64,000 nt of DNA from Escherichia coli (lineage in GTDB: Bacteria; Pseudomonadota; Gammaproteobacteria; Enterobacterales; Enterobacteriaceae), in assembly GCF_003334765.1 (NCBI RefSeq), contig NZ_QOWT01000008.1; one strand, 5' to 3'. Positions 19,843-37,054 of this stretch are shown piece after piece (the first letter of the stretch is position 1; the number at the start of each line of letters is the position of its first letter). The notes below the pieces were generated by a model. It worked only from the letters and a program-made list of their open reading frames with translations. It was not told the origin of the DNA and did not search any database. The translations under genes were made by a program, and so were the position numbers.

Positions 19843-19873
19843 AACCTCTATCCTGTATTTCTGGAGATAGTCA

Positions 19874-19902
19874 TTTGACCGATACTGTGAAATATCGTTC
19901 CC
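19874..19902 (-). promoter_or_regulatory. Candidate sigmaE promoter for bepA
   Basis: Minus strand reads GGAACG-N16-GTCAAA (consensus GGAACTT-N16-TCAAA) about 30 nt upstream of the bepA ATG. Confidence 0.55.
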
Positions 19903-20054
19903 ACCGCGCCGCCTTTGAGTGTAACGGCGAAGATTAGCCCACTCAAATGACTTTTCAGTTTCCTGAATCCGTCATAAAAAGCGAAGTCTTTTTTGTGACA
20001 TTTCGATACAATTGCGGATCGCAATCCCGCTCTTGAGGTTCAGGGAAGGTCTTT

Positions 20055-21116
20055 ATGCTCGAAATGTTGATGCAATGGTATCGCCGCCGTTTTAGCGACC
20101 CGGAAGCGATTGCCTTGCTGGTTATTTTAGTTGCCGGATTTGGCATTATCTTTTTCTTTAGTGGCCTGCTTGCTCCGTTGCTGGTGGCTATTGTGCTGGC
20201 CTATTTGCTGGAATGGCCAACCGTGCGTCTGCAATCTATTGGCTGCTCCCGCCGCTGGGCGACGTCGATTGTATTGGTGGTTTTCGTCGGTATATTGCTA
20301 CTGATGGCGTTCGTGGTACTGCCTATCGCCTGGCAACAGGGCATCTACTTAATCCGCGATATGCCGGGGATGCTCAATAAGCTTTCTGACTTTGCCGCCA
20401 CGTTGCCGCGCCGCTATCCGGCGTTAATGGACGCGGGCATTATTGATGCAATGGCCGAAAATATGCGCAGTCGGATGCTGACCATGGGCGATTCGGTGGT
20501 GAAAATTTCCCTCGCCTCGCTGGTCGGTTTGCTGACCATAGCCGTCTATCTGGTGCTGGTGCCATTGATGGTCTTCTTCCTGCTGAAAGACAAAGAGCAG
20601 ATGCTGAACGCCGTTCGCCGGGTGCTGCCGCGTAACCGTGGGCTGGCAGGACAGGTGTGGAAGGAGATGAATCAACAAATCACCAACTATATCCGCGGCA
20701 AAGTGCTGGAGATGATCGTGGTGGGGATCGCCACCTGGCTGGGGTTCTTGCTCTTCGGGCTGAACTATTCGCTGCTGCTGGCAGTGCTGGTCGGCTTCTC
20801 GGTTCTTATTCCGTACATTGGCGCATTTGTGGTGACCATTCCGGTGGTTGGCGTGGCGCTATTCCAGTTTGGCGCAGGTACTGAATTCTGGAGCTGCTTC
20901 GCGGTGTATCTGATTATTCAGGCGCTGGACGGCAACCTGTTAGTGCCGGTGTTGTTCTCCGAAGCGGTTAACCTGCATCCGCTGGTGATTATTTTATCGG
21001 TGGTGATCTTCGGTGGTTTGTGGGGATTCTGGGGCGTATTCTTCGCCATTCCGTTGGCGACGCTGATCAAAGCCGTGATTCATGCCTGGCCCGATGGGCA
21101 AATCGCGCAAGAATAA
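20055..21116 (+). CDS. perM: AI-2E/PerM family membrane transporter (YfgO)
   Basis: 353-aa polytopic membrane ORF MLEMLMQWYRRRFSDPEAIALLVIL.... Confidence 0.88.
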   Translation: MLEMLMQWYRRRFSDPEAIALLVILVAGFGIIFFFSGLLAPLLVAIVLAYLLEWPTVRLQSIGCSRRWATSIVLVVFVGILLLMAFVVLPIAWQQGIYLIRDMPGMLNKLSDFAATLPRRYPALMDAGIIDAMAENMRSRMLTMGDSVVKISLASLVGLLTIAVYLVLVPLMVFFLLKDKEQMLNAVRRVLPRNRGLAGQVWKEMNQQITNYIRGKVLEMIVVGIATWLGFLLFGLNYSLLLAVLVGFSVLIPYIGAFVVTIPVVGVALFQFGAGTEFWSCFAVYLIIQALDGNLLVPVLFSEAVNLHPLVIILSVVIFGGLWGFWGVFFAIPLATLIKAVIHAWPDGQIAQE

Positions 21117-21120
21117 TCTT

Positions 21121-21155
21121 CAGCCCGACGAACTGTTTCGCCGGGCTGATTTTTC
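21121..21155 (+). terminator. Rho-independent terminator after perM
   Basis: CAGCCCGACG-aactgtttcg-CCGGGCTG followed by ATTTTT; abuts the focB stop on the other strand. Confidence 0.55.
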
Positions 21156-22002
21156 AGGGTTCCTGACGTAAATAAATAGCCCGATAACACATACTCACCA
21201 GCACCGCACCGCCGATAATATTACCCAGCATCACCGGGAGCAGATTGGCGGTAATAAAATGGCTGACCGTCAGTGCCGGAAAATTGTCTGCGCTACTGTG
21301 CGCCAGCTGCCAGAAGGGGGGAGGGGCGAAATGGCGAATGGCAATGGCGAACGGAATCACAAACAAATTGGCGATACAGTGCTCAAAGCCACTGGCGACA
21401 AACAGGGTGATGGGCAAAATCATGGCGACGATTTTGTCGCATAACGAACGCCCGCAATAACTCATCCACAGCGCCAGGCAAACCATCAGATTGCACATAA
21501 TGCCGAGGCTGACAGATTCAGTAAATGTATGATGCATTTTGCCCTCGGCGCAGTGTAAAACCGCGACTCCCCACATCGCGTTTTCACTCATCACCAGCCC
21601 GGAAAACCAGATTAACAAACTGAAACAGGCAATACCTGCCAGATTACCGCAGGCCACCAGAAGTGCGTTAATCAGCCAAGTTCGCCAACTAATAACGCCC
21701 CGACTTTTTGCCATCACCGTCATTACCGACGAGGTGAACAGGCTGGTGCCGCAAACCGCCAGCAAAATAAAGCCGAGTGTAAAGCAAAGGCCGCCCACCA
21801 GATGGGTTAATGCCTGTGAAGACGGGGCATCGGCGATAACGGAAAGGTAAAAAGTAAATCCGATCGCCATAAACACGCCAGCGGACATCGCCATTAAAAA
21901 GACCGACACTTTACTGCGGGCAATTTTATGGGCGGCAATCCGTTCAGCGATTGCCGCTTTTCTGGCGCTCAACTGCAAGTCGAAAGAGAGTTTGTTTCTC
22001 AT
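21154..22002 (-). CDS. focB: Formate channel FocB (FNT family)
   Basis: 282-aa membrane ORF directly downstream of hyfR; FNT-family TM pattern. Confidence 0.9.
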   Translation of the reverse strand: MRNKLSFDLQLSARKAAIAERIAAHKIARSKVSVFLMAMSAGVFMAIGFTFYLSVIADAPSSQALTHLVGGLCFTLGFILLAVCGTSLFTSSVMTVMAKSRGVISWRTWLINALLVACGNLAGIACFSLLIWFSGLVMSENAMWGVAVLHCAEGKMHHTFTESVSLGIMCNLMVCLALWMSYCGRSLCDKIVAMILPITLFVASGFEHCIANLFVIPFAIAIRHFAPPPFWQLAHSSADNFPALTVSHFITANLLPVMLGNIIGGAVLVSMCYRAIYLRQEP

Positions 22003-22023
22003 GCATACTCCTGCAAAAGCAGA

Positions 22024-24036
22024 TTACAACACCTCGCGAACCGAGATCCCCAGCCGCTGCATTCGTGACAGCAGCGTGGTGCGCTTCATCCCTAATCGCG
22101 TCGCTGCGCCACGGGGCCCGGCAACAATGCCATTGGTTTCTCGCAATACCTGAACAATGCGCTGACGTTCTTCTTCGTCATTCTCTGGCGTCGTCGGGTG
22201 CAGTAACTGCGCCATTGAACTGCGAAGCGCTGAATCTTCATTTAGCGTCGGCAGTAAACGGCTTTGTCGGACATTTAGATGTAAATTCAGACTGTTACCA
22301 CGAGTCAACAGTACCGCCCGCTCAATCACGTTTTCCAGCTCGCGCACGTTGCCCGGCCAATCCCACGACATCAACTGGCGTAGTGCCTCGGTCGGGATGG
22401 CGTCAATTGCGCGATTCATATGGCGCGCCATTTTTTGCGTGAAATGTTTTGCTAAAAGAGGGATATCTTCCGGACGGTCGCGTAGCGGCGGCAATTCCAG
22501 TGGGAAGACATTCAGGCGATAAAAGAGATCGCTGCGAAACTGGCGATCTTCAACCATTTGCCACAAATCACGGTTGGTGGCGGCAATGACTCTGACATTC
22601 ACCGGGATCGTTCTACTCCCGCCGAGACGCTCAATCTCCCGCTCCTGCAATACGCGCAGCAGTTTAGGCTGAAGTTCTAACGGCAGATCGCCAATTTCAT
22701 CGAGAAACAACGTGCCGCCATCGGCAATTTCAAAACGACCACGATGGGTATTAATCGCACCAGTAAACGCCCCTTTGTCATGACCGAATAACTCACTTTC
22801 CAGAAGACTGGCGGGGATGGCAGCGCAGTTGATTTTGACCAGCGGCTTGTCGCGTCGCGGGCTAAGTTGATGGATCGCTCTGGCGATCACCTCTTTGCCA
22901 GTTCCGGTTTCACCACAAATCAACACCGTACTGTCGCTCTTCGCCACAATATCTACCTGCTGGAGCAGGTCTTCCATTGCCTGGCTTTGATAGATAATGT
23001 CACCGATGCCCAGATTCGAAAGGAGCTGCTCGCTAAGCTGGTGGTTTTCTTGCTGCAAACTTTCCTGCAAATCGGTCATGCTACGCCAGGCATCGGCATT
23101 GCCAACGGCAATAGCGATGCGATCGGCTATGTGTTGTAGTAGCTGGCAGTTTTCCTCACTAAAGAGAGTGGAAGAGGTATGCGCCAGCAACAATGCACCC
23201 GGTGTATGGTTGCCAAAGGTAAGCGGTATAAGGAGCGCAGATTCGCAGCCGTTAGATGCAAGTAAGAGTAATAACGGGTCGCGTTGCCAGAGAAACAGAT
23301 CATCTGCACGGTGCGTCAAGGTCGGTTGTCGGGTTTGTAGCGTTTGTGTCAGCAATACACTTTCGCCAGGCATACAGCGTGGCAGACACGCACAATGTGA
23401 GGCAGAAAGATCGCTGCACCACAGGCTGAACTTCTCGTTCTTTCGATGATCGCCCAGTACCATACTGACTGAAGCCAGACCGAAAAAATGATGGATCTCA
23501 CGAGCGACGTCAGCGATCAGATCGTCGAGATCAAGATGTGACAGCACTGCATTAGTAATATCAACCAGTACCCGATGATGATCGCGATCTTTCTCCAGCA
23601 AACGCAGCGCCACCTGCTGTTCTTCATCATTGAGCCATGATTGCAGAACCGGGGTGATTATCCGCGCCAGCCAGTTAAACAGTGTGCAATCCTGGGAAGT
23701 AAAACGACTGCCGTGGGTGCGAATAAAGCGTAGCTCCGCCATTCCACTACTGCCGAGAAGGACGGCGTGACGCGAATAATCGACCATCTCGCCCTGATAC
23801 TCTGTTGTTGCCGTCACATCGCTGCCATCATCATGGTAGCGGTAATAGAAGTTGCTTTTGAGAACATGCAGTTCAATAAGTTGTACCGGGCTGAACGGCG
23901 GCGGCAGCGGGATGAAGGCGCGTAATAAAGACGCCTTGCCGTGTTTCTGTGCTAACCGCTCCGCGAGCATTCCGTTTACCGCTTCAATTGTTATTCCTTG
24001 TGGCGGGGCAAACATCGCCTCGTCTGACATAGCCAT
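22024..24036 (-). CDS. hyfR: Sigma54-dependent transcriptional activator HyfR (GAF, AAA+, HTH)
   Basis: ORF track 22024..24039; GESGTGKE and GAFTGA sigma54-interaction motifs; start set to the second Met for 670 aa. Confidence 0.9.
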
Positions 24037-24065
24037 CAACAGTCCTTATTAATGAGAAATCCTTC

Positions 24066-24479
24066 TCACGCAATTTTTCTGGCCATCAGATAGATGGCCG
24101 GTTCCTGCACAATTTCATCCAACAGATGAATGAATTGAATGCTACGCGCCTGCCACACAGACGTCGCGTCATCCGCCAGTGGCGCGAATGCCCGGGTCAA
24201 CAGGGCGGTGTGGCTGGCGTCAATAACAATCTCACCAAAAGTCATCACCCCCAGCATCTTACGTCGGGCTTGCTCCTCTTCGACCAGTGCAAGCCAATCT
24301 TCGTATTCCGTCAGTGGGCAGCGGAAGGCGACATTCAGACAATCAATCACGCCAACGTGATGGCCGATAGCTAGCGAGTAATACATTACCTGAGAGCTGT
24401 GTTCCGGCATCTCGTCGCTACTGGCGACAAACTTTTTTCGCAGCGTCCAGAAAACAATTTCCCCGCACTCTTCAGTCAT
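24066..24479 (-). CDS. hyfJ: Hydrogenase-4 component J (HycH-like maturation factor)
   Basis: ORF track 24066..24542; start reset to [11 protein letters not shown] (137 aa), overlapping the hyfI stop. Confidence 0.8.
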
Positions 24480-25230
24480 GTAACCCCCGGAGTACGCGAA
24501 AGAGTTGCTGAACGATACTATTGAGACGTGGATCGTCGGCATCGCGCAACCAGGTGTTAACCCGATTTCCTGTAGGAGCGTCGCTTAAATGGCGCAGGAG
24601 CCGATCGCAAATTTCTCGCCCCTGACGATAGCCCGCCAGCCGCCGCGCTTCTCGCTCAATGGCGATACGCTGTGATGGCGGGATCTGCGGCCACAACGGT
24701 TGCATAGTCACCCCGGTGGGATCGCGATAATCCACAGCGTGAATCTTCTGTTGCAGCAAACCGAGCGCCACGGCGAAACCGTGAATGGTGGCGGCCGGTG
24801 TTGGCGGGCAGCCGGGGATCCAAACATCAATGGGGACAATGGTGTCGCTACCGCCCCAGACGCTGTAGAGATCGTGGAAAATACCGCCGCCGACACCGCA
24901 CGCGCCGTAGGAAACACAAATTTTATGATCGGGGGCAGACTCATACGCCCGAAGTGCAGGCATACGCATCGCCCGGGTGACTGCGCCAGTAAATAACAAA
25001 ATATCGGCGTGACGCGGTGATGAAACAACCTTAATGCCAAAACGTTCTGCGTCGAATACTGGTGTAATGGCAGCAAAAATTTCGATTTCACAGGCGTTGC
25101 AGCCGCCGCAATCGACGCGATAAACGTAAGCCGAGCGACGGATATCCTGTAGCAAATGCCGCTTCATCTTTTGCGTTTGCTCGTCCAGCGTGATGGGCTG
25201 GCTGACATGTTGTGTAAGCACTGGACTCAT
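24472..25230 (-). CDS. hyfI: Hydrogenase-4 small subunit (NuoB-like, Fe-S)
   Basis: 252-aa ORF with conserved Cys ligands characteristic of NuoB/HycG family. Confidence 0.9.
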
Positions 25231-25772
25231 AGCTGCTCCTTAGCCACCAGCAGTACATCTGTATCGTCGTTGATCAGCGTCGCGCGTTGTTTGCATTCCG
25301 GGCAGACGCTCGCTTGCGCCCACAACATTTCGCGGTTTTGTGGCGCATTTTGTTGCTGTGCTAACAATTCAGCAGCCAGTGCGATGGTTTTTTGCGGGGC
25401 AAACGGGCGTTCGCAACGGCTGCAACGTTGTAGATGGAACGTCGCGCGGGTATAGAGATCGGCTTTATTGGTGACGGTCAGTTCAAAGTTATTGGTAAGC
25501 TGGATGGCTCTGGTCGGGCACACTTCTTCACAACGTCCGCAGTAAATACAACGCCCCAGATAGAGCTGCCAGGTGCGCGAATTTTGCTGGTCGTCGGTCT
25601 GGATAGTCAGCGCATTTGCCGGACAAGCACAGGCGCAGGCACCGCAGGCAATACATTGGCTGGGCATCAGGTCCGGTTTTCCGCGAAAGCCAGGGCTGAC
25701 CTCCAGTGGCGCGAAGGGATATTTCACCGTCGCGGTTCCGGCGCGCATAATAGTTTTCAGTAACTTCAGCAT
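25227..25772 (-). CDS. hyfH: Hydrogenase-4 ferredoxin-like subunit (2x[4Fe-4S])
   Basis: 181-aa ORF with two CxxCxxCxxxCP motifs. Confidence 0.9.
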
Positions 25773-25781
25773 CTTCTGTCC

Positions 25782-27449
25782 TTACTTCAGCGGCGAACGG
25801 TTACGATCAATGCCGTAGCGTTCGATCTCTTTATACGGCACGGTTTTTGACTGGCGCTTGCGCACATCTACCAGCGTCACACGGTCGGTACAGGAGTAGC
25901 AGGGATCAAGGCTACCGATAATCAGCGGTGCGTCAGAAACGGTATTGCCGCGCAGCATGTAACGCAACACCGGCCAGTTGGCGTAGGTGGCGGCACGGCA
26001 GCGCCAGCGGAACAATTTTTGGTTATCACCGAGCATGCTCCAGTGCACGTCTTCACCGCGTGGCGCTTCAACAAAGCCCAGCGCGAATGCGTGAGGTTTA
26101 TAGCTAAAGCCTTCGGTCAGCAGTGGGGTATCCGGCATGTTGTCGAGGGCAAATTCCAGCATTGCCAGCGAATCAAACGTCTCTTTGACACGGACCATCA
26201 CGCGGGAGAAAACATCGCCGCCGGTAAAGGTAAACAGTGTTTTTGGAATATTGCCGTAGTCGGCGTAGGGGTGATCAAAGCGCAAATCACGGGCGATTTG
26301 TCGGTCGAGAATGCCAATGCCCTGAGTGCGTTGTTCCATATTCGGCGTAGCAAGCAGCATCTCTACCAGCTCCGACACGTCGGCGCGCATCTCGCGCACC
26401 AGTTTCAGCGTTTGCAGACGTTGCTCTTTGAGAATATCGCGGCGAACACCACCAATCAGATTCAGACCGTAGGTTTTACGCGACCCGATCAGCAATTCCG
26501 CCATCGTCATCGACTTTTCCCGCACGCGGAAAAATTGCATAAAGCCGGTATCAAAACCAACGAAATGGCAGGAGAGGCCAAGGTTAAGCAAATGACTGTG
26601 TAGCCGTTCGACTTCCAGCAGAATCGAGCGAATAGTATGTGCTCGTTGCGGCACCTCAATCCCCAGTGCATTTTCAACCGAATTGGTATAGGCCACACTG
26701 TGGGCAAAACCGCAAATCCCACACACGCGGTCCGATAAGAAGGTCACTTCGTTGTAGCCCATCCGCGTTTCTGCCAGTTTCTCCATGCCGCGATGGACAT
26801 AAAACAGGCGGTAATCAGCATCGACAATTTGCTCGCCATCCACAAACAAGCGGAAGTGACCCGGTTCATCGGAGGTGATATGCAGCGGGCCGACAGGGAT
26901 CACCCGCGCATCGCTGTTGCCCTCATTGATAAACGGATACGTTTCGGAATCAGTCGTCGGTTCAGGGCGCAGTCGATAATCCATCGCATCTTTGCGCAGC
27001 GGATGCATATCTTCCGGCCAGTCATCGGGCAACACCAGGCGACGCTGATCCGGCAGGCCAACCGGAATCAGCCCGTACATATCGCGAATTTCTCGCTCGC
27101 CCCAGACCGCGGCAGGGACGCGCGGTGTGACTGACGGAAACTCCCGACTGTCGGCATCGACCAGCGCCTTCACCACAATCCAGCATTTTTCGGCCCCTTC
27201 CATTGAAAGGGCATAATAAACCGCGTAATGACCGTTAAGTGTCCGCTCGTCGTTGCCAAACAGGACCGGAAGCCAGCCATCATGTTGATAATAAAGATAC
27301 TGTACAACGTCAGGCAGCAGATTGATTTTCACCGCAATGGTGACCTGTTCAGGCGTTTGTCGCTCTTCATCCAGCACCGCGCCGGGGAACTGCGTTTTCA
27401 GGGCGGCGAGAATCGCTTCGCCACGATTTGACGATGAATTAACGTTCAC
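25782..27449 (-). CDS. hyfG: Hydrogenase-4 [NiFe] large subunit
   Basis: ORF track 25782..27494; start reset to GTG at 27447-27449 preceded by GGAG (555 aa); C-terminal DPCYSCTDR Ni-binding motif. Confidence 0.9.
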
Positions 27450-29019
27450 TGTGTTTCTCCGAAACAGATGCGGTGCCTGAAGGCAAAAAATCATGCCAGG
27501 TGCTACGTTGTGCAGGCAGATCGTGCGTCCCTGAGAGGACTATAGTGGAAGCGCCCGCCAGGATCCTGATGACAGGTTGTGGAATATGCGTTCCCATCGC
27601 CAGCATCATGACCAGCAGAATCACCATTGGCGAGGTGGTCAACCAGCCGAGATCACCCCGGTTAACGGCCTGCGGCGGTTTCGCCATTAACACCCGCGCA
27701 GCCATCCGTACCAGGCCCGCCAGCACCAGCGTTAACAGCAATAACAGCAGGACGATAATCAGCAGGTGATTACGTGCCAGTCCGGCGGTAATGGTCATAA
27801 ATTCGCTAAGAAAAATGTTGAAGGGCGGCATCCCTGCCAGCGCCAGCGCACCGCCGCCAAACAGCACGGCGGTAAATGGCATGATTTTGAGCATCCCACA
27901 GACGACGTTGAGATCGCGCGTGCCGTACTTGAGCAGTACATTGCCGGAACCGCAGAACAGCAGCGTTTTTGCCAGACTGTGGTTTAAGATGTGCAGCAGC
28001 GCGGCAAAAATTCCCAGCGGCCCGCCAATGCCTAGCTCCACCGCGACCAGCCCCATGTTCTCCACGCTGGAGTACGCCAGCAGACGCTTAATGTCCCGCT
28101 GTACCAGAATGAAAAATGCCGCCACGGCAACCGACAACATGCCGAAGATGAGCAACAACCGGTTGGGGAAATCGCTGCCGATGGCTTGGCAAATAATGAT
28201 GTAATAGCGAATCAGCACCAACAGCGCGCAGTTCAGCAATACGGCGGAGAGCAGGGCGCTGACCGGACTCGGCGCTTCACTGTGAGCATCCGGCAGCCAG
28301 GCGTGCATGGGAAATAGCCCGGTTTTGGTACCAAAGCCAATTAGCAAAAACACAAAGGCCAACAGCATTAATGTTGGGTCAAGCAAGGACGATTGCTTAA
28401 GAACCTCGCTCCAGAATATCGCCATTTCTGCCTGCGGCATAACGCTGGCGGCGTTGGCGTATACCAGCACGGTACCGAACAGACCAAAAGCGACACCAAC
28501 AGTACAAATAATGATGTACTTCCATGCAGCTTCCAGCGATGAACGCTGACCGTAAATGCCTACCAGAAACGCCGAGCTTAAGGTGGTGGCTTCGATCGCC
28601 GCCCACATCACAATCAGGTTATTGCTGGTAACAACCAGCAGCATGGTGAACAAAAACAGATGGAAGAAACCGTAGTAATCGCACAGCGTAACGGGTGAAA
28701 GCTCGCCGTGTGCCACTTCATGACGCATGTAGCCAATCGAGTAAATACCGGTGAGAAAGCCAATCACACCAAGAATGGCGAGGAACAAACCGCCCAGACC
28801 ATCAATATGAAGCCACAGTCCCGCAGCGAATATTTCTCCTGCATCAGCGGCAGTTTGGACCACCCAGAGTGCCAGAATCAGCAGCAGTATGATCCCTAAG
28901 CTATGTAATACGGTCACCGTGCGAGTCGCAGAAAGTCTCCGTTTCCGGCAGGCAAAACAGAGCAGCGAAAAAAGCAGCGGCGTGAGCAGGAGTAAAGCGA
29001 ACATCACAGAATAACTCAT
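27439..29019 (-). CDS. hyfF: Hydrogenase-4 membrane subunit F (NuoL/M/N antiporter-like)
   Basis: 526-aa polytopic membrane ORF. Confidence 0.9.
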
Positions 29020-29023
29020 CTCA

Positions 29024-29674
29024 TTATCCCTTCAGCGCGGTCAAGTTGTTCACGTCCAGCGTGCCGTGGGTACGCCATATTTTTCTTGCCAGTAACACCA
29101 TCACAATGACGGCGAAGATGGCGTCGGTAGCGATACCTATTTCCACCAGTTCCGGTGCTCGCCAGGCAAGAAGCGCCAGCACCAGATGGGAGCCGTTTTC
29201 CATCAGGCAGTAACCAAAAATTTGCCGCAGGATATTGCGCTGGCTGACAATGCACAGCAGGCCAAGCAGAAAATGACCTAACGCTACCGCCAGCGCCGGT
29301 TTCAGCCCGGTAGCCATCGGTAGCTTCACGGGCTGAACGACAAATGCGCAAAGCAGGACAATTAACGCCGCGAGCAGTGCCATCATTGCCGGACCGAATA
29401 ACGCTTTTTCCGGGATGTTCTGGGGAATATTTCGTGCAGCGTAAGTCATGATTAACGGTACCAGCAGCACTTTGGTGATAAAGGCGCTGGCGGACCAGAT
29501 CAGCAGTTGCTCTGCGGCGAACAGGCACGAGAGAGTGGCGAAAATAGACACCAGCACCAGTGACTGGCAGGCGTAAAATCCGCATGACAGGCGATAGCTT
29601 TTGACGCTAATCACAAACAGCGATGTCAGCATCATCAGTCCCGCCAGATTATTTACGATCATAGAACCGGTCAT
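29024..29674 (-). CDS. hyfE: Hydrogenase-4 membrane subunit E
   Basis: 216-aa hydrophobic ORF. Confidence 0.88.
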
Positions 29675-29685
29675 TCATCATCTCC

Positions 29686-31125
29686 TTACTGCAACCAGGT
29701 CGCGGCGATTACGCTGGAAATCAGCGACATCACAATCAGTACAATCAACACCAGGCGCATTGATCCTGGCAGCGGTGCGGCATCGGCGACGGCCTCGCTC
29801 GGTTTGCCAGGCACAACGCGACCAAACCAGCGAATAAACCAGGCGAAACTGGCGACCGATTCAATCATCAGAAGAATCATGGCGGGCAGCAGGATCCAGT
29901 ACTCCACTGACAACGCAAAACCGGCAGCAAACAGCGGGAATTTACTGAAGAAGCCGTTGAACGGCGGCACGCCGGTAATCGCCAGCGCTGCCACGCAGAA
30001 ACCCACGCCTGGCAACGGCAGGGTGTGCAATACGCCACGCAGACGCGGCAACAAGCGCGTGCCGCAGCTGTAACTCAGCGCACCTGCTACAAGGAAAAAC
30101 AGGCTTTTAGCGAACGCGTGGTTGACGATGTAGGCGATGCTGCCCTCCAGCGCCAGCCGCGAGCCGAAGATGGAGAGCGACAAGCCGAAGAACATCCAGC
30201 CAAGTTGAGTGATGGTCGACCAGGCTAGCAACCGCTTCATATCCTGCTGTGGCAAATACATCAGAAAGCCATAAAGAATGGTGACCAGTGCCATGACCAT
30301 GCCAACGCCGCCAATCACATGCGGGATATTGCCGCCGTCGATAATAGCGCGGGCAAAAATGTAAACGCCCACTTTCACCATCGATGCGGCGTGGAGATAG
30401 GCGCTGATCGGTGTTGGCGCTTCCATTGCGTCCGGTAGCCACGCTTGCATCGGTAGCTGGGCCGATTTCCCCCACGCGGCAAACAGGATGCCGCCATAAA
30501 CCAGATAACGTGCGTCGCCGTGTAACTCGCTCATCGCGCTAAGCGCAAACGTTCCGGTCTGCAAAAACAGCGTGGCGGCGGCAAGATACAACCCCAACGA
30601 GCCGATATGAGTGATAAGTAACGCTTTTAGTGCTGAACGCTGCGCTTTATCGCTCTGGTAATAACTGATCAACGCCCAGGAGCAGCCGCCTGTAATTTCA
30701 AAAAACAACAACTGACCGAGCAGCGTCGAGGAGAGTACCAGTCCCGCCATCGCGCCGATAAACACCAGTAAAAATGCGTAATAACGATTCGTGCCGTTAT
30801 GCGGGTGTTCGCGATTTTTATCCGTCAGATAACCCGTGGAGTAGATCGTGACCAGCAAACCGAGAAACACCACCACAAACAGAATCAGCGTACTCACGCG
30901 ATCAATGACCAGGCCAAACAACGCCACATCCCCCACGTTGACCAACGTCAACGTGACGGCAACTTTATCGGCCTGATAAAACGCGGAGATCAGTGACAAC
31001 ATGCACAGCGTGGTCAGCGCGGCGAACAAAACCCCCCATTCGGCGGCCCGACGTTGTGGCGAAAACGAAACGACCAGTGCGCCGATAAAAGGCAGCAATA
31101 ACGTCGTCAGAGCAAGATTTTCCAT
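29686..31125 (-). CDS. hyfD: Hydrogenase-4 membrane subunit D (antiporter-like)
   Basis: 479-aa polytopic membrane ORF. Confidence 0.9.
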   Translation of the reverse strand: MENLALTTLLLPFIGALVVSFSPQRRAAEWGVLFAALTTLCMLSLISAFYQADKVAVTLTLVNVGDVALFGLVIDRVSTLILFVVVFLGLLVTIYSTGYLTDKNREHPHNGTNRYYAFLLVFIGAMAGLVLSSTLLGQLLFFEITGGCSWALISYYQSDKAQRSALKALLITHIGSLGLYLAAATLFLQTGTFALSAMSELHGDARYLVYGGILFAAWGKSAQLPMQAWLPDAMEAPTPISAYLHAASMVKVGVYIFARAIIDGGNIPHVIGGVGMVMALVTILYGFLMYLPQQDMKRLLAWSTITQLGWMFFGLSLSIFGSRLALEGSIAYIVNHAFAKSLFFLVAGALSYSCGTRLLPRLRGVLHTLPLPGVGFCVAALAITGVPPFNGFFSKFPLFAAGFALSVEYWILLPAMILLMIESVASFAWFIRWFGRVVPGKPSEAVADAAPLPGSMRLVLIVLIVMSLISSVIAATWLQ

Positions 31126-31141
31126 ATTCCGTCAGTGCTCC

Positions 31142-32089
31142 TTACAGACCGGTTAACCAGAAGACCCATGCAAGCGCAGCAAGGCTGAAGCCAAGCCAGG
31201 TCACATGGTGAATGAGTAAAAAACGCCCGCGTGCCAGCGTGTTTTCTGCGATTGAGGCCAGTACAAAAATCAGCAAAACCTTGAGCAGCGTAACGACAAG
31301 TGAAGTCAGCAGGCAGGCGAGAGAAAGTTCTTGCGCGCGCCCAAAGGGCAGAAACAGGGCCACAAACAGTGATGCCATCACGACCTGTTTCAGCCCCAGC
31401 CCCCATTTCGCTAGCGCCAGCCCGGCACCGGAATATTCGGTCAGCGGGCCTTCCTGTAATTCCTGTTCTGCTTCAGCAACATCAAAGGGAATTTTTCCCA
31501 TCTCAATGAAGCAGGCAAAACCACAGGCCAGTAACGCCAGTACGGTGGTTAGCGGCGAGTTCCAGCCCATCGCCAGCGTATTGCTGATCATCTCGATATG
31601 CGTGGAACCTGCTATCAGCGCCAATACCAGCAGTGAGAGAATAAGCATTGGTTCGACCAGAATGCCGAGCGTCAACTCGCGACTGGCACCGACTCCCGCA
31701 AACGGACTTCCGGTATCCAGCCCGGAAAGAGCAAAGAAAAAACGAAACAGGGCAAGAAGATAGATAAGGGTGATCAGATCGCCGCCGCCCGCAAAAGGGG
31801 AAACGGTAATAAACAGTGGTAAGGCCATCGCCAGCACCAGCATGCTGCTGATTAATACCCACGGCATCAGGCGGAACATCAGACCTGAAGATGTCGGCGC
31901 AACTTCCTGGCGTTTAAACAGTTTGTGGATATCGCGATAATCCTGCCAGATCCCCGGCCCGCGGCGGGAGTGCATACGCGCGCGTATCTGCCGGGAAATA
32001 CCCGTAAAAAGTGGGGTTAGCATCAGCAGAATCACGGCCTGTGCTAACGCAAAAATGACCAGATATCCGTCGCAAAGAGTTTGTCTCAT
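31142..32089 (-). CDS. hyfC: Hydrogenase-4 membrane subunit C (NuoH-like)
   Basis: ORF track 31142..32110; start reset to MRQTLCDGYLVIF (315 aa). Confidence 0.88.
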   Translation of the reverse strand: MRQTLCDGYLVIFALAQAVILLMLTPLFTGISRQIRARMHSRRGPGIWQDYRDIHKLFKRQEVAPTSSGLMFRLMPWVLISSMLVLAMALPLFITVSPFAGGGDLITLIYLLALFRFFFALSGLDTGSPFAGVGASRELTLGILVEPMLILSLLVLALIAGSTHIEMISNTLAMGWNSPLTTVLALLACGFACFIEMGKIPFDVAEAEQELQEGPLTEYSGAGLALAKWGLGLKQVVMASLFVALFLPFGRAQELSLACLLTSLVVTLLKVLLIFVLASIAENTLARGRFLLIHHVTWLGFSLAALAWVFWLTGL

Positions 32090-32099
32090 GGTGATTTCC

Positions 32100-34118
32100 T
32101 TAGACGGCAATAGCGATTAGCAGCACAACCAGTGCGGCGACCACATACAGGCAATAGAGACGAAAGTCGCCGCTTTGCAGATGCTGTATTTCTTTGGCCA
32201 GCCGTTGGGTGGCGCTCACGATGGGGCGGATCACCCGCTCATCCCAGAAGGGTTCTGTGCTCTGAGCCCTGGCGGTGACGTGCGCAAGACCTTTATTTAG
32301 CCTCAGCGTAGGGTCGAGCTGTTGTCGTAGACGAAATAGCGCAGAAAAGACCACACGCAGCGGCTGCATCACGCCATTGCCTGACGGGGCCATCGCATTT
32401 TCCCAGCCGTAGCCGCATGCCCAGGCATCTCCTGTGCGACGAAACGCTGCGCGGCGCGAACGACACCACAGCCAGTAAAGGCCAGGCAGCAAAGGCATCG
32501 CCAGTAGTAACAGCAACAGTAATGAGGGGGTGACCTGTGTATGAAACGTGCCGGGTACAAGTGCTATTCCGCTGGCGACAGTGGCGGGAGGGGTATTGGT
32601 AAACGCATGGGCAATATGCATTATCTTCGGTGCCAGCCAACTGGCACTAAGCGCAATTAATACGCAGAGTGCCGCGAGCAGTAGCATGGCGACGATCATC
32701 GTATTTGGCACTTCCTGTGCCTCTTCAGCGTGTGTACTGCGCGGCGCACCACAGAAAGTAATACCGTACATTTTTACGAAGCACATTACTGCCAGCCCAC
32801 CAGTGACTGCCAGCATTACCATAGCAATAGGACCCGCAAGTTGTAGCGCTACGGCTTCCACACGACTTAGTGAGAACAGCGACTGCCAGGTGTACCATTC
32901 GCTGATAAAACCATTCAGCGGAGGAATGGCTGATATCGCGAGGCAACCAATCAGGCATGCTGCGGCTGTCCACGGCATCCGTTTCGCTAGTGCCCCCATT
33001 TTTTCCATGTCGTGGGTATGCAAACGCGAAATAATCGCTCCCGCGCCGAGAAATAGCAGCCCTTTGAACAGCGCATGGTTGAGCAGATGAAACAGTGCGC
33101 CGAGCAGTCCAACCACGGTGAGCAGCGGGTCGTGCAGTGACAGACCGACCATCGCCACACCGACTGCCAGCAAAATAATGCCGACGTTTTCGACGGTACT
33201 CCAGGCCAGCAGCCGTTTGATATCCTGTTCCGCCAGCGCATATAGCACGCCCAGGAGCGCGGAGATTGCGCCGATCGCCATCACCAGAATGCCCCACCAC
33301 AGAGGCAAACCCGTTTGCGCCAGCAGATCCATCGCTACTTTCAGGATGCCGAAAATACCTATTTTGACCATTACGCCAGACATCAACGCCGAAGCGTGCG
33401 ATGGTGCGGCAGGGTGAGCGCGCGGCAACCAGCTGTGCAACGGCATCATCCCGGCTTTCGCGCCAAAACCGAAAAAGGCCAGCAGGAACACCGCCGACGC
33501 CAGCCCCGGAGAAAGTGAAAGCGTGCGGAAACTGGCAAAATCGAGGCTGCCGCTTTCGCGCCCCATCAGCAAGAAGGCGATCATTATCAGCACCGATCCG
33601 GCGTGGGCGATAAAAAAGTAGAGCATGCCAGCGTTGATCGACGTTTTATCCTGCCTGGCAATGACCAGAAACCAGGAAGACAGCGACATCATTTCAAACA
33701 GCACGATGAACCAAAAAGCGTTGTCCATCACCAGCAGGGCAACCATCGATGCGATGAAAATATTCATAAAGAAGCCCATCGCCGCCGCGCCTTTGCCCTC
33801 GTATTCGCGCATATAAGTCAATGAATAGAGAGAACAAACCACCACCAGCAAGGAGATAACCAGCACCATAAATGCCGAGAGGCTATCCATTCGCAGGGTT
33901 AAATCGGCAAATTCAAAAGGGGTGGCAAAACGGGCGACTAAAGTTACACCAGCATGTAATTGCGTAATTCCGCTGATGATGCCAATCACGCCGCCCACCA
34001 GCGATGTGATGCCGGAAAGCTTAATAGCCAGTCTGTCCAGACCGAGTAAAAACAGCGAAGCCAGACTAGCAAACAGATAGAGAATCAGCGACCAGGTTAA
34101 TAATTGCAGGGCATCCAT
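32100..34118 (-). CDS. hyfB: Hydrogenase-4 membrane subunit B (NuoL-like antiporter-like)
   Basis: 672-aa polytopic membrane ORF; start overlaps the hyfA stop. Confidence 0.9.
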   Translation of the reverse strand: MDALQLLTWSLILYLFASLASLFLLGLDRLAIKLSGITSLVGGVIGIISGITQLHAGVTLVARFATPFEFADLTLRMDSLSAFMVLVISLLVVVCSLYSLTYMREYEGKGAAAMGFFMNIFIASMVALLVMDNAFWFIVLFEMMSLSSWFLVIARQDKTSINAGMLYFFIAHAGSVLIMIAFLLMGRESGSLDFASFRTLSLSPGLASAVFLLAFFGFGAKAGMMPLHSWLPRAHPAAPSHASALMSGVMVKIGIFGILKVAMDLLAQTGLPLWWGILVMAIGAISALLGVLYALAEQDIKRLLAWSTVENVGIILLAVGVAMVGLSLHDPLLTVVGLLGALFHLLNHALFKGLLFLGAGAIISRLHTHDMEKMGALAKRMPWTAAACLIGCLAISAIPPLNGFISEWYTWQSLFSLSRVEAVALQLAGPIAMVMLAVTGGLAVMCFVKMYGITFCGAPRSTHAEEAQEVPNTMIVAMLLLAALCVLIALSASWLAPKIMHIAHAFTNTPPATVASGIALVPGTFHTQVTPSLLLLLLLAMPLLPGLYWLWCRSRRAAFRRTGDAWACGYGWENAMAPSGNGVMQPLRVVFSALFRLRQQLDPTLRLNKGLAHVTARAQSTEPFWDERVIRPIVSATQRLAKEIQHLQSGDFRLYCLYVVAALVVLLIAIAV

Positions 34119-34735
34119 TAGCGTTGCTCCTGAGTGAGGGAAAGGGGATCCTCCCCGCCATTGGCAAACCAGCTTGCGGCAAGGCGCTGTTTTTCTTTCA
34201 TCTGACGTTGCAGGCTATCACCGGTGATCAGCCGTAACGCCTGATTCGGGCAAGCGCGAACGCAGGCCGGACCTTCTGGCAAGAAATCACACAGGTCGCA
34301 TTTCACCGCGACGGTCTGGACACCAGGTTCCCAGCGCAGCAAAGCATGTTGTGTTGGCGCGTTTTCTTCGCCGTCTTTGAGTGAGCCTTCAGCCTGAAAA
34401 ACATATTGCGCATGGGCATTCACCGGACGGCTTCCTGAAGCGCTGATTGCGCCAAATGGGCAGACCACGGCGCAAAGCTTGCAGCCAATACAGAGGCTTT
34501 CGTTGAGTTGGATCGCATCATCCCTCTGAGAGATGGCATTGACCGGGCAGACCTGCAGGCAAGGGGCTTCCTCACAGTGATGACACACGACAGGGGCAGT
34601 GATTGTTGACGTCTTCGCCAGGGCCAGGCGCGGGTGTTGCTGTAAACCTTGCGTTTTATGCACGTCCGAACAGGCAGCGAGACAGGTATTACATCCTGTA
34701 CACCACAGTGGTTCGGCCACCACAAAGCGGTTCAT
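34118..34735 (-). CDS. hyfA: Hydrogenase-4 4Fe-4S ferredoxin subunit A
   Basis: ORF track 34118..34774; start reset to MNRFVVAEPLWCTGCNTC (205 aa) with AAGGAG 5 nt upstream; four Cys clusters. Confidence 0.9.
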   Translation of the reverse strand: MNRFVVAEPLWCTGCNTCLAACSDVHKTQGLQQHPRLALAKTSTITAPVVCHHCEEAPCLQVCPVNAISQRDDAIQLNESLCIGCKLCAVVCPFGAISASGSRPVNAHAQYVFQAEGSLKDGEENAPTQHALLRWEPGVQTVAVKCDLCDFLPEGPACVRACPNQALRLITGDSLQRQMKEKQRLAASWFANGGEDPLSLTQEQR

Positions 34736-34776
34736 GTCGGCTCCTTGAAAATGATATGAAACATTGCATTTCATAT

Positions 34777-34792
34777 TGCATAAAGGATGCCA
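34777..34792 (-). promoter_or_regulatory. Sigma54 (-24/-12) promoter of the hyf operon
   Basis: Minus strand reads TGGCATCCTTTATGCA against consensus TGGCACG-N4-TTGCA; GG and GC correctly spaced; about 45 nt upstream of the hyfA ATG; fits a HyfR-activated operon. Confidence 0.65.
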
Positions 34793-34917
34793 TTCTGATT
34801 AACTCAATATATTCAATAAGTTATGTATTAACTGGATTCTGAACGGTACAAAAATGATGGTCATTAACGTTCAGCAAAAAATGGATTCGACACCCGTGTC
34901 GCAGGGGAAAGCGAGAA

Positions 34918-34933
34918 TGTGATCTTGATCACG
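34918..34933. promoter_or_regulatory. CRP-like palindrome TGTGATCTTGATCACG
   Basis: Close match to TGTGA-N6-TCACA, about 150 bp upstream of the sigma54 element, between the bcp 3' end and hyfA. Confidence 0.45.
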
Positions 34934-34987
34934 AGAAGTGAGGTATGCTGGCCGCAAGCGCAGCCAGCACGGAATGGAGCAAAGTAA

Positions 34988-35458
34988 TCAGGCGTGTTCT
35001 TTCAGCCAGTTCAGCACAACGTCGTGGTGATTGCTGGTTTTGAAATCGTCAAAGACATGTTCGATTTTGCCATCAGCGTCAATCAGGAAGCTGATGCGAT
35101 GAATGCCATCGTAGGTTTTGCCCATGAAGGACTTTTCACCCCAGACGCCGAATTGTTCGCACACCTGGTGGTCCTCATCAGACAGGAGCGTAAAGTTAAG
35201 CAGCTCTTTTTCCGCAAAACGGGAGAGTTTTTCGGGTTTATCGGTGCTGATACCCAGCACATCAACGCCCGCTTTTTTCAACTCATCCATGTTATCGCGT
35301 AAGCCGCAGGCCTGTACGGTACAGCCGGGGGTCATGGCTTTCGGGTAGAAATAAACCAGAACACGCTGTCCCTGGAAGTCGGTCAAATTAACTTGTTCTC
35401 CGTCTTGATCCGGCAAGCTAAATTTCGGTGCGATATCACCGGCTTTCAGTGGATTCAT
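34988..35458 (-). CDS. bcp: Thiol peroxidase Bcp (peroxiredoxin)
   Basis: 156-aa ORF MNPLKAGDIAPKFSLPDQDGE... with peroxidatic Cys in the TPGCT motif. Confidence 0.93.
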   Translation of the reverse strand: MNPLKAGDIAPKFSLPDQDGEQVNLTDFQGQRVLVYFYPKAMTPGCTVQACGLRDNMDELKKAGVDVLGISTDKPEKLSRFAEKELLNFTLLSDEDHQVCEQFGVWGEKSFMGKTYDGIHRISFLIDADGKIEHVFDDFKTSNHHDVVLNWLKEHA

Positions 35459-36030
35459 TACTTAACTCCATCCTGTTCATCATGTTGGGAATAATTGACG
35501 ACGTTAATACTGCCTTGTGCATTGAGTTCTGTACATAGGGCTTTGAACGCTTGCTCAATATTTGCTGCGTCCGCAGATGCGGGGCTGTGGGCGGTTATCT
35601 GAATATGCAACTGCGCAGCCCGTTCATTTTCAGCAGGTTGCGTGCGCGACACCAGCTCCGCAATGTTCATATGATGCGCGTCGAAAAGTGCTGTGAAGCG
35701 TTCAATTAAATGCGGGGAGTCTGCCACATCGACCTGAACCCAGACAGATGCTGGCATTGGCGGACGCGGACGCGCCGTCGTGCGCTTCATCACGATTAAA
35801 AGATCCAGTTCGGCACCTTTCAACGGTAACGTTGATTCAATCAGAGTAATGGCATTCCATGAACCGGAAAGCAGCATAATAAACGTGAACTCTTCTCCCA
35901 GCATCGCCAGGCGACTGTCTTCAATATTACAGCCGCAACTACTGACATGACGGGTGATGGTGTTCACAATTCCAGGGCGATCGGCACCCAACGCAGTGAT
36001 CACCAGATAATGTTGCGATGACAGTGTCAA
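35458..36030 (-). CDS. gcvR: Glycine cleavage system regulator GcvR (ACT domains)
   Basis: ORF track 35458..36096; 190-aa form starts at TTG 36028-36030 preceded by AAGGA; stop overlaps the bcp start. Confidence 0.8.
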   Translation of the reverse strand: MTLSSQHYLVITALGADRPGIVNTITRHVSSCGCNIEDSRLAMLGEEFTFIMLLSGSWNAITLIESTLPLKGAELDLLIVMKRTTARPRPPMPASVWVQVDVADSPHLIERFTALFDAHHMNIAELVSRTQPAENERAAQLHIQITAHSPASADAANIEQAFKALCTELNAQGSINVVNYSQHDEQDGVK

Positions 36031-36175
36031 ACTGGTTATTCCTTTAAGGGGTGAGTTGTTCTTAAGGAAAGCATAAAAAAAACATGCATACAACAATCAG
36101 AACGGTTCTGTCTGCTTGCTTTTAATGCCATACCAAACGTACCATTGAGACACTTGTTTGCACAGAGGATGGCCC

Positions 36176-37054
36176 ATGTTCACGGGAAGTATTGTCGCGA
36201 TTGTTACTCCGATGGATGAAAAAGGTAATGTCTGTCGGGCTAGCTTGAAAAAACTGATTGATTATCATGTCGCCAGCGGTACTTCGGCGATCGTTTCTGT
36301 TGGCACCACTGGCGAGTCCGCTACCTTAAATCATGACGAACATGCTGATGTGGTGATGATGACGCTGGATCTGGCTGATGGGCGCATTCCGGTAATTGCC
36401 GGGACCGGCGCTAACGCTACTGCGGAAGCCATTAGCCTGACGCAGCGCTTCAATGACAGTGGTATCGTCGGCTGCCTGACGGTAACCCCTTACTACAATC
36501 GTCCGTCGCAAGAAGGTTTGTATCAGCATTTCAAAGCCATCGCTGAGCATACTGACCTGCCGCAAATTCTGTATAATGTGCCGTCCCGTACTGGCTGCGA
36601 TCTGCTCCCGGAAACGGTGGGCCGTCTGGCGAAAGTAAAAAATATTATCGGAATCAAAGAGGCAACAGGGAACTTAACGCGTGTAAACCAGATCAAAGAG
36701 CTGGTTTCAGATGATTTTGTTCTGCTGAGCGGCGATGATGCGAGCGCGCTGGACTTCATGCAATTGGGCGGTCATGGGGTTATTTCCGTTACGGCTAACG
36801 TCGCAGCGCGTGATATGGCCCAGATGTGCAAACTGGCAGCAGAAGGGCATTTTGCCGAGGCACGCGTTATTAATCAGCGTCTGATGCCATTACACAACAA
36901 ACTATTTGTCGAACCCAATCCAATCCCGGTGAAATGGGCATGTAAGGAACTGGGTCTTGTGGCGACCGATACGCTGCGCCTGCCAATGACACCAATCACC
37001 GACAGTGGTCGTGAGACGGTCAGAGCGGCGCTTAAGCATGCCGGTTTGCTGTAA
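36176..37054 (+). CDS. dapA: 4-hydroxy-tetrahydrodipicolinate synthase
   Basis: ORF track 36158..37054; start reset to [18 protein letters not shown] (292 aa). Confidence 0.95.

Follow-up and report, generated by a model that had tools for sequence, protein, structure and literature searches.

[quoted passage not shown]

The window, the whole 64-kb stretch of Escherichia coli DNA that was analysed, contains the known hyfABCDEFGHIJR-focB operon (hydrogenase-4 or formate hydrogenlyase-2, FHL-2) in the K-12-type allelic state. Twelve co-oriented open reading frames (ORFs) on the minus strand each pair with their K-12 hyf counterpart, and the sequence is 100% identical to annotated hyf loci across 12.8 kb. 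The order hyfA-J, hyfR, focB between bcp and yfgO is that of the 100%-identical annotated record and of MG1655 (b2481-b2492), with which the window shares genes, lengths, overlaps, promoter and flanks. The original prediction had named this operon, and the gene-by-gene match to K-12 and the annotated record bear it out. The operon is textbook material and already known, but its allele could be a point of interest. All twelve genes had been placed in 22024-34792; this interval begins at the hyfR stop codon, ends at the -24 box of the predicted sigma-54 promoter and therefore holds only eleven. Outside it lie focB (21154-22002), the focB terminator (21120-21149) and upstream regulatory DNA (34793-34987). 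The genes are:

focB, 21154-22002, minus strand: FNT-family formate channel, 282 aa (NCBIfam NF007261, 649 bits, cut-off 499), identical to K-12
hyfR, 22024-24036, minus strand: sigma-54-dependent activator with GAF, AAA+ and HTH_8 domains, FhlA paralogue, identical to K-12
hyfJ, 24066-24479, minus strand: HycH-type assembly chaperone (NF011664, 208 bits, cut-off 145)
hyfI, 24472-25230, minus strand: NuoB-like small subunit (NF005012, NuoB subfamily), with D218A
hyfH, 25227-25772, minus strand: NuoI-like 2x[4Fe-4S] ferredoxin-like subunit (NF006076, 362 bits, cut-off 270)
hyfG, 25782-27449, minus strand: [NiFe] large subunit of 555 aa, a NuoC-NuoD fusion, GTG start, with the 48-bp deletion, T321I and T39A
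hyfF, 27439-29019, minus strand: antiporter-like subunit (NF005041, 1175 bits, cut-off 951), with T44I
hyfE, 29024-29674, minus strand: FHL-2-specific small membrane subunit (NF008556, 369 bits, cut-off 136)
hyfD, 29686-31125, minus strand: NuoL-like antiporter-like subunit, intact in the window (NF005097, 811 bits, cut-off 430)
hyfC, 31142-32089, minus strand: NuoH/HycD-like membrane anchor (NuoH models, E = 3.5e-28)
hyfB, 32100-34118, minus strand: antiporter-like subunit with a HycC-like C-terminal extension (NF005086, 977 bits, cut-off 667)
hyfA, 34118-34735, minus strand: HycB-like Fe-S subunit with CxxCxxCxxxC motifs, identical to K-12; predicted docking site of FdhH

HyfB, HyfD, HyfE, HyfF, HyfH and FocB all score above the cut-off of their NCBIfam equivalog models, and HyfE, which is specific to FHL-2, is present together with the three antiporter-like subunits (NF008556, NF005086, NF005097, NF005041). 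HyfR has the Pfam domains PF00158, PF01590 and PF02954 and scores 642 bits against the FhlA model, under its cut-off of 830. HyfH contains two CxxCxxCxxxC motifs. The genes are tightly coupled, as had been proposed, with intergenic gaps of -11 to +29 nt and four overlaps (hyfA/B 1 nt, hyfF/G 11 nt, hyfH/I 4 nt and hyfI/J 8 nt). The claim that all genes are intact holds only in part: the twelve ORFs are free of internal stops and equal in length to those of K-12, but compared with the ancestral allele hyfG has lost 48 bp in frame.

Family models and key residues agree that HyfB, HyfD and HyfF are antiporter-like, in line with the original prediction. The Glu of TM5 is invariant in all seven aligned proteins. 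HyfB, HyfD and HyfF have the TM7 Lys, which is Leu in HycC, and the residue in TM12 is Glu in HyfB and HyfF and Lys in HyfD. We take these sites to be the equivalents of NuoM E144, K234 and E407. A HycI-like protease is not encoded in the 64 kb (tblastn of HycI, best E = 0.49), so that the locus is indeed without a maturation endopeptidase of its own, in agreement with published work (PMC7654741).

Three candidate regulatory elements were found around the operon:

34777-34792, minus strand: predicted sigma-54 promoter TGGCATCCTTTATGCA, GG-N10-GC, 42 nt 5' of the hyfA ATG
34888-34901, minus strand: candidate binding site of HyfR or FhlA, a palindrome (CGACACGGGTGTCG) some 110 bp 5' of the -24 box
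21120-21149, minus strand: predicted stem-loop terminator 3' of focB, in the gap between it and the convergent yfgO

The pattern TGGCAY-N5-WTGCW has a single match in the 64 kb, at 34777-34792. Its chance expectation is 0.55 per window, and therefore the location of the match is informative and its mere presence is not. The operon combines a predicted sigma-54 promoter 5' of hyfA with the sigma-54 activator HyfR. The palindrome may be a binding site for HyfR or FhlA, as its position and symmetry suggest. The stem-loop has 13 pairs (8 G-C) followed by a T-rich tail; it was the top-ranked terminator-like site in the scan and would act as a terminator. Many weak terminator-like matches within genes were set aside as composition effects. 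The sigma-70 promoter scan gave no site upstream of hyfA and fewer in all than shuffled controls did, and the Rfam scan of 19000-37000 gave no match.

By design the enzyme would be complex-I-like. FdhH would dock on HyfA, and electrons would cross HyfA, HyfH and HyfI before they reach the [NiFe] site of HyfG. A membrane arm of five subunits (HyfB, C, D, E and F, of which three are antiporter-like) could couple the formation of H2 to the movement of ions. Transcription would be directed by HyfR and sigma-54, and FocB would move formate. The soluble arm is homologous to that of FHL-1 (hyc, hydrogenase-3; PDB 7Z0S), and tblastn of FHL-1 proteins against the window gave identities of 70% for HycE/HyfG, 62% for HycG/HyfI, about 50-51% for HycB/HyfA, 45% for HycF/HyfH, 48% for HycH/HyfJ, 52% for HycD/HyfC and 40% for HycC/HyfB. 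FHL-1 has only one antiporter-like subunit, without the TM7 lysine, where the window has three, and it includes HycI and HycA. The FHL-2 systems of Pectobacterium atrosepticum and Trabulsiella guamensis, which produce H2 and encode the protease HyfK (PMC7384014; bioRxiv 10.1101/563510), are Hyf-type with HyfE and three antiporter-like subunits, like the window; their HyfG is about 80% identical to that of the window, and focB is absent in T. guamensis.

The window hyfG lacks 48 bp in frame, GCCCGTGATTATAGCCCTGTAGGGCCGCTGATCCGCGGCAGTGGTTTT, which encode 16 amino acids (ARDYSPVGPLIRGSGF), and the same loss is found in K-12. HyfG therefore has 555 aa in the window and 571 aa in O157:H7, Z226-7, 2016C-3878, 99COLEC and LD93-1; the 16 residues are missing relative to both the 571-aa allele and HycE. 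In DNA alignments with the full-length genes of O157:H7 and Z226-7, the 48 bp sit between two 10-bp direct repeats (GCCCGTGATT), of which the window retains one copy:

26285-26294, minus strand: deletion scar in hyfG, lone leftover copy of GCCCGTGATT

A slipped-strand event between the two repeats probably removed the 16 residues. HycE and all other genera contain the segment, and therefore we rejected the reading of the 48 bp as an insertion in O157-type strains. No mention of the hyfG deletion was found in the openly accessible literature that was searched.

The lost segment is highly conserved. Ten of its 16 residues are invariant among 41 sequences from many genera, and the motif GPxxRx[ST]G within it occurs in 114 of 120 homologue clusters, which are all of the non-E. 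coli-type clusters examined. Of the remaining six, five have an identical E. coli-type deletion junction and one is a truncated Shigella sonnei protein. GPxxRxSG can be aligned in HycE (7Z0S), MbhL (6CFW) and Aquifex NuoCD, and HyfG of Pectobacterium and Trabulsiella has it. HycE keeps the loop and Arg395, which maps within the segment missing from the window HyfG; its counterpart in HycE is residues 384-399. In the FHL-1 structure, Arg395 belongs to a conserved His284/Glu437/Arg395 proton pathway to the active site (PMC9474812). The loop and its proton-pathway arginine (HycE Arg395, NDUFS2 Arg297) are thus absent from the window HyfG. Thr321, which is invariant in 41 homologues, is replaced by Ile. 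MG1655 shares both the deletion and T321I, whereas full-length E. coli alleles have ARDYSPVGPLIRGSGF as well as Thr321. HyfG does retain both motifs that ligate Ni-Fe, RVCGIC (241) and DPCYSCTDR (515), the C-terminal 32-aa tail (assembly peptide), and the equivalents of HycE Arg478, Asp529, His284 and Glu437 in EAPRGED, LDPC, RLHSH and VKETF. Judged from these alignments, the loss of an invariant loop and a proton-pathway arginine, with Thr321 also replaced, probably leaves the catalytic subunit of the window dead.

The deletion is widespread in E. coli: among 4293 hyfG-bearing genomes, 2180 have the full-length allele and 2113 the deleted one. K-12 and BL21 both carry it, as do about half of the genomes with hyf. 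Essentially all hydrogenase-4 work was done on strains derived from K-12 or B and hence on the deleted allele. All strains with the deletion share one common K-12-like haplotype flanking it, so that a single origin spread by recombination is favoured over recurrent independent deletions at the repeats, which are less likely. 99COLEC has the same K-12-like haplotype around the site, yet its hyfG is full-length. The full-length-allele operons of O157:H7 NE 1092-2, O104:H4 C227-11 and 2016C-3878 have the same twelve genes at the same site with 98-99% identity.

Other changes point to decay of the operon. Across its 64 kb the window has 13 differences from MG1655, and its source is thus a close relative of MG1655 and not that strain itself. 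Four of these lie in the 13.6 kb of hyf, and all four are nonsynonymous; the seven coding differences in the flanks comprise two nonsynonymous and five synonymous changes. This nonsynonymous excess (one-sided Fisher p = 0.045) is based on 11 SNPs only, and because dN/dS generally depends on time, close relatives would in any case be expected to show high values. Polarity analysis showed that HyfF T44I, HyfG T39A (at a Thr with 90% or higher conservation among 41 homologues) and HyfI D218A are derived in the window lineage, whereas the window has the ancestral HyfB T66 and T66P is private to K-12. K-12 laboratory mutation was thereby rejected as the source of the four differences, with T66P as the only K-12-private change. 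The whole locus is missing from 1127 of 5426 E. coli genomes (21%), and about 930 others have a deletion of the hyfD segment 30161-30368. Frameshifts, stops or deletions occur in six of ten other hyf loci sampled. Since 99COLEC and LD93-1 carry frameshifts together with full-length hyfG, decay is not tied to the hyfG deletion alone. Pairwise dN/dS between distant lineages is 0.10-0.16, and the twelve ORFs have remained open in K-12 as well as in the window in spite of the deletion; both therefore indicate purifying selection for most of the history of the locus. The hyfG deletion may thus be of recent date.

We consider it fairly probable that the known hyf operon of the window, being of K-12 type, has a HyfG that is unable to form an active hydrogenase and is decaying under ineffective selection. 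Loss of HyfG activity and relaxed selection on hyf in the window lineage are what the deletion and the missense changes suggest. If HyfG is inactive, the silence of K-12-type hyf would be a structural defect and not regulatory alone. The original prediction described the operon as largely silent and its role as debated, which agrees with the literature (PMC7654741; PMC7384014; bioRxiv 10.1101/563510), where E. coli FHL-2 is termed a "long-standing mystery" (bioRxiv 10.1101/563510). It also implied a complete, intact enzyme awaiting the right expression conditions, and this part is not supported. A functional ion-translocating FHL-2 that is merely untranscribed in the laboratory and matured by HycI from hyc seems unlikely. 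Its open and tightly coupled ORFs, predicted promoter and activator, retained Ni-Fe ligands, 32-aa tail and antiporter residues, and low long-range dN/dS would fit such an enzyme, and HycI is able to mature a heterologous HyfG (PMC7654741). However, Finney et al. (2020) obtained no H2 when Phyc or PT5 drove hyf in K-12, and still none with the HycE tail on HyfG and an extra protease (PMC7654741). The 16 missing residues, ten of them invariant and one the proton-pathway arginine, and T321I at an invariant site argue against it as well. The checks that had been proposed earlier, RNA-seq and a comparison of hyc with hyc hyf deletions, have largely been made already in K-12 and would not bear on the hyfG lesion.

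A dead catalytic site might instead be accompanied by a retained non-catalytic role, in which the membrane arm, HyfR or FocB acts on proton, potassium or formate flux or on the regulation of FHL-1. Such a role would account both for ORFs that have stayed open and for the phenotypes reported in K-12 mutants: one group described H2-related effects of ΔhyfG in BW25113, which belongs to K-12 and has the deleted allele (PMC10758574). It would also suit the K-12-identical hyfR and focB, which pass or approach their family models, and the conserved antiporter residues of HyfB, HyfD and HyfF. Against this, each of hyfR, focB, hyfB, hyfC, hyfD and hyfI is broken in one natural isolate or another, the whole locus is gone from about a fifth of genomes, and all four hyf SNPs relative to K-12 are missense changes in structural genes; we therefore hold it to be rather improbable. 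That the 16 residues form a dispensable surface loop, with K-12 inactivity arising from translation, assembly or an absent partner, is very improbable, since the motif is kept by every homologue beyond the deleted E. coli/Shigella allele among the 120 clusters, is conserved out to complex I and archaeal MBH, and contains an arginine of the published proton pathway (PMC9474812), even though the lesion keeps the reading frame and about half of the genomes with hyf carry it. AlphaFold2 models of both HyfG alleles from a 41-sequence alignment left the region unresolved (mean pLDDT about 61, below 50 around the deletion in both) and therefore give no structural estimate of how HyfG accommodates the deletion.

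The preferred reading, an inactive HyfG in a decaying operon, bears on work with K-12. The most thorough attempt to activate the K-12 operon failed for unexplained reasons (PMC7654741), and the hyfG deletion may be a testable explanation for the failure to obtain K-12 hydrogenase-4 activity even with strong promoters. Deletion of an active-site-proximal invariant loop in the catalytic subunit offers a hypothesis that is concrete and cheap to examine. Only tentatively do we suggest that the deletion and T321I are the main cause of undetected hydrogenase-4 in the laboratory, that full-length lineages (O157:H7, O104:H4) are active and that repair of the 48 bp would wake the K-12 enzyme. No report on the activity of full-length-allele E. 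coli hyf operons was found in the literature searched, and therefore some other defect may be limiting, instead of the deletion or next to it. If the suggestion is true, FHL-2 of the full-length-allele lineages would be active and possibly ion-translocating. The deletion is also a caution that conclusions on hydrogenase-4 physiology drawn from K-12 mutants may not hold for E. coli as a species. The hyf operon is in addition an example of stepwise operon decay within a species, through whole loss, the hyfD deletion, the hyfG deletion, frameshifts and IS insertions.

The hyfABCDEFGHIJ-hyfR-focB genes for hydrogenase-4 (Hyd-4, formate hydrogenlyase-2) occupy 21154-34735 on the minus strand of the window as twelve co-oriented ORFs; K-12 MG1655 and an identical record are both annotated with the order bcp, hyfA to hyfJ, hyfR, focB, yfgO. 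A megablast search with the interval 22024-34792 gave matches in 4299 of the 5426 complete E. coli genomes, each time as a single chromosomal copy; every match carries hyfA-hyfR annotation, and identity reaches 100% in several. This is a known locus, and the original prediction of a complete hyf locus in this interval was correct but ordinary annotation as to its identity. It erred in counting twelve genes there: the interval runs from the final base of the hyfR stop codon (22024) to the base with which the sigma-54 -24 box begins (34792), and thus holds eleven. The exclusion of focB is its one coordinate error, and the strand was left unstated. Besides a 195-bp region upstream of the promoter, the following features lie outside the interval:

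21120-21149, predicted focB terminator
21154-22002, minus strand, focB
34888-34901, minus strand, CGACACGGGTGTCG, a perfect palindrome some 110 bp 5' of the sigma-54 -24 box

The palindrome sits where a site for an enhancer-binding protein (HyfR or FhlA) is expected, and is a candidate for such a site. The predicted sigma-54 box (GG-N10-GC) lies 42 nt 5' of the hyfA ATG, and the window contains no other match of this kind; as 0.55 matches are expected by chance per 64 kb, about the one seen, its position rather than its presence is informative.

The genes are tightly coupled, as claimed, with gaps of -1, 10, 16, 11, 4, -11, 9, -4, -8, 29 and 21 nt. HyfB, HyfD and HyfF pass their NCBIfam equivalogs and match NuoL/M/N and MrpA/D models, which bears out the three antiporter-like subunits. 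Aligned with NuoL, NuoM, NuoN and HycC, all three have the invariant TM5 glutamate and the TM7 lysine, the latter being absent from HycC, and carry E, K and E, respectively, at the TM12 position. HyfE, HyfH and FocB score over the cut-off of their equivalog models, HyfJ matches HycH, HyfI is NuoB-like, HyfC NuoH-like and HyfA HycB-like, and HyfR contains GAF, sigma-54 AAA+ and HTH_8 domains. This architecture is that of a formate hydrogenlyase that resembles complex I and has a large membrane arm, as is well established for the family and has been shown by experiment with the enzymes of Pectobacterium and Trabulsiella (PMC7384014; bioRxiv 10.1101/563510). No maturation endopeptidase is encoded anywhere in the window, in agreement with PMC7654741, and a silent operon of debated role is in line with the literature (PMC7384014; bioRxiv 10.1101/563510; PMC7654741).

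Gene by gene, the hyf genes of the window have the same lengths, starts and stops as those of MG1655, with no internal stops and only four nucleotide differences. The whole window corresponds to MG1655 2,635,935-2,571,935 reversed with 13 differences, so that it comes from a very close K-12 relative and not from MG1655 itself. The sole indel is a T absent from the window at 59838 (K-12 2576097), directly 3' of the maeB stop codon; the other 12 differences are substitutions, including two missense changes outside hyf (AcrD R698S and EutP M124I). All four hyf differences are nonsynonymous (HyfB 66, HyfF 44, HyfG 39, HyfI 218) and the remaining 50 kb has seven coding differences, of which five are synonymous; the nonsynonymous excess in hyf has a one-sided Fisher p = 0.045 on very small counts. 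Comparison with ten other strains places the origin of three changes in the window's lineage; HyfB T66P (window 33923, hyfB codon 66) is private to MG1655, with Thr in the window and all ten strains. Between distant lineages dN/dS is 0.10-0.16, which indicates that the hyf genes were under purifying selection through most of their history.

That all genes are intact holds for the open reading frames but probably not for the function of hyfG, and this was a substantive oversight. The gene measures 1668 nt in the window and 1716 nt in O157:H7 and Z226-7. Protein alignment shows that HyfG of the window, like that of K-12 and SW07096, lacks 16 residues, ARDYSPVGPLIRGSGF, which the longer allele retains and which correspond to ARDFSNVGPMVRASGH in HycE, the large subunit of formate hydrogenlyase-1 (FHL-1). 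In the DNA, two copies of GCCCGTGATT bracket the 48 bp, and one of them is kept in the window (26285-26294), as is characteristic of deletion by strand slippage or microhomology. Of the 4293 genomes matched by a probe across the segment, 2180 are full-length and 2113 deleted, the latter including K-12 derivatives, BL21 and MFDpir. Of the 120 top-ranking homologue clusters, which span many genera, 114 contain the motif GPxxRx[ST]G; the six exceptions comprise five with the very junction seen in E. coli and a truncated protein from Shigella sonnei. It follows that the short allele is the derived one and that it is restricted to E. coli and Shigella.

Ten of the 16 lost residues are invariant in a 41-sequence alignment (A386, R387, D388, S390, V392, G393, P394, R397, S399 and G400). 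In structures, the motif aligns between HycE (7Z0S), P. furiosus MbhL (GPTARGSG) and Aquifex NuoCD (GPVARGSG), and its arginine is HycE Arg395. The paper on the FHL-1 structure places Arg395, with His284 and Glu437, in a putative proton pathway to canopy residues and describes conservation of this pathway across FHL, MBH, soluble hydrogenases and complex I, the last with NDUFS2 R297 as the equivalent (PMC9474812). The catalytic subunit encoded by the Δ48 allele is probably non-functional. Counted against this reading are that every ORF is still open, that ΔhyfG phenotypes were reported in BW25113 (PMC10758574), and that some strains with the full-length allele carry lesions too.

HyfG of the window carries two further substitutions, both at conserved positions. 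T39A, at a position at least 90% conserved, is confined to the window's lineage. T321I changes a residue that is invariant in the 41 homologues; it also occurs in K-12 and in 99COLEC, which has the full-length allele, and is thus older than the deletion. Although the 5' part of hyfG can differ among Δ48 strains, its 3' two-thirds have a K-12-like haplotype in all of them, and 99COLEC has the same haplotype with the 48 bp retained. This pattern fits a single deletion event on a K-12-like haplotype with later recombinational spread; alternatively, the deletion may have recurred at the repeats. Two 740-aa clusters (P0004, P0005) are HyfG-HyfH fusions with added ferredoxin Pfam domains on the Δ48 allele, implying that the hyfG stop codon was lost in some strains. 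An in-frame ATG lies 45 nt 5' of the annotated hyfG GTG start (window 27450-27494); a start there would yield a 570-aa protein and an overlap of 56 nt with hyfF. This longer form is annotated in one RefSeq record (LD93-1).

Disruptions occur in six of the ten other sampled hyf loci, although some single-strain homopolymer frameshifts among them may be assembly errors. One-bp deletions in hyfB (nt 591; L010, L013, L014) and hyfI (nt 348; L006, L012) and a hyfD frameshift (nt 89; L011, L014) recur identically in independent assemblies and are therefore probably real mutations, with less certainty for hyfD, where the frameshift is in a G6 run. A stop codon in hyfR and a 208-bp hyfD deletion were also found. 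The latter segment (30161-30368) is intact in the window and deleted in ~930 E. coli genomes, where its loss shifts the frame and hyfD is annotated as a pseudogene; SW07096 combines it with the Δ48 allele. In-frame length changes at short repeats occur in hyfH (-15 and -6 nt; L008:4372-4902, L011:4174-4713) and hyfF (+6 nt, GCGCTG repeat; L013:6434-8020).

IS insertions and IS-mediated deletions are found at hyf as well. An IS4-like IS421 lies at the hyfA 3' end, just 5' of hyfB, in ML35 (L017:12187-13299), which shares the window's hyf haplotype, and in two other strains, all otherwise 100% identical to the window, and most of the operon is gone in strain 300081 (H62), in association with IS1. 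The exact complement of the 4299 carriers, 1127 of 5426 complete genomes, lacks hyf-focB altogether, matching the loss reported in the F/G/B2 lineage (PMC6896753). In these genomes a 98-bp spacer separates yfgO from bcp (L003:1363-1460), and part of it is similar to the DNA upstream of hyfA at the end nearer bcp (window boundaries 21117-21153 and 34736-34987).

No mention of the internal hyfG deletion was found in the openly searchable literature, and priority is not claimed. Finney et al. (2020) obtained no H2 from K-12 Hyd-4 with the Phyc or PT5 promoter, a graft of the HycE assembly peptide, or extra HycI or HyfK protease, and concluded only that the protease level "is not the sole factor"; their published alignment was limited to the C-terminal 93 residues of HyfG (PMC7654741). 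The probable HyfG defect offers a simple explanation for this null result. The deletion is the interesting part of the locus, and it reduces a long-standing puzzle to a single knock-in experiment.
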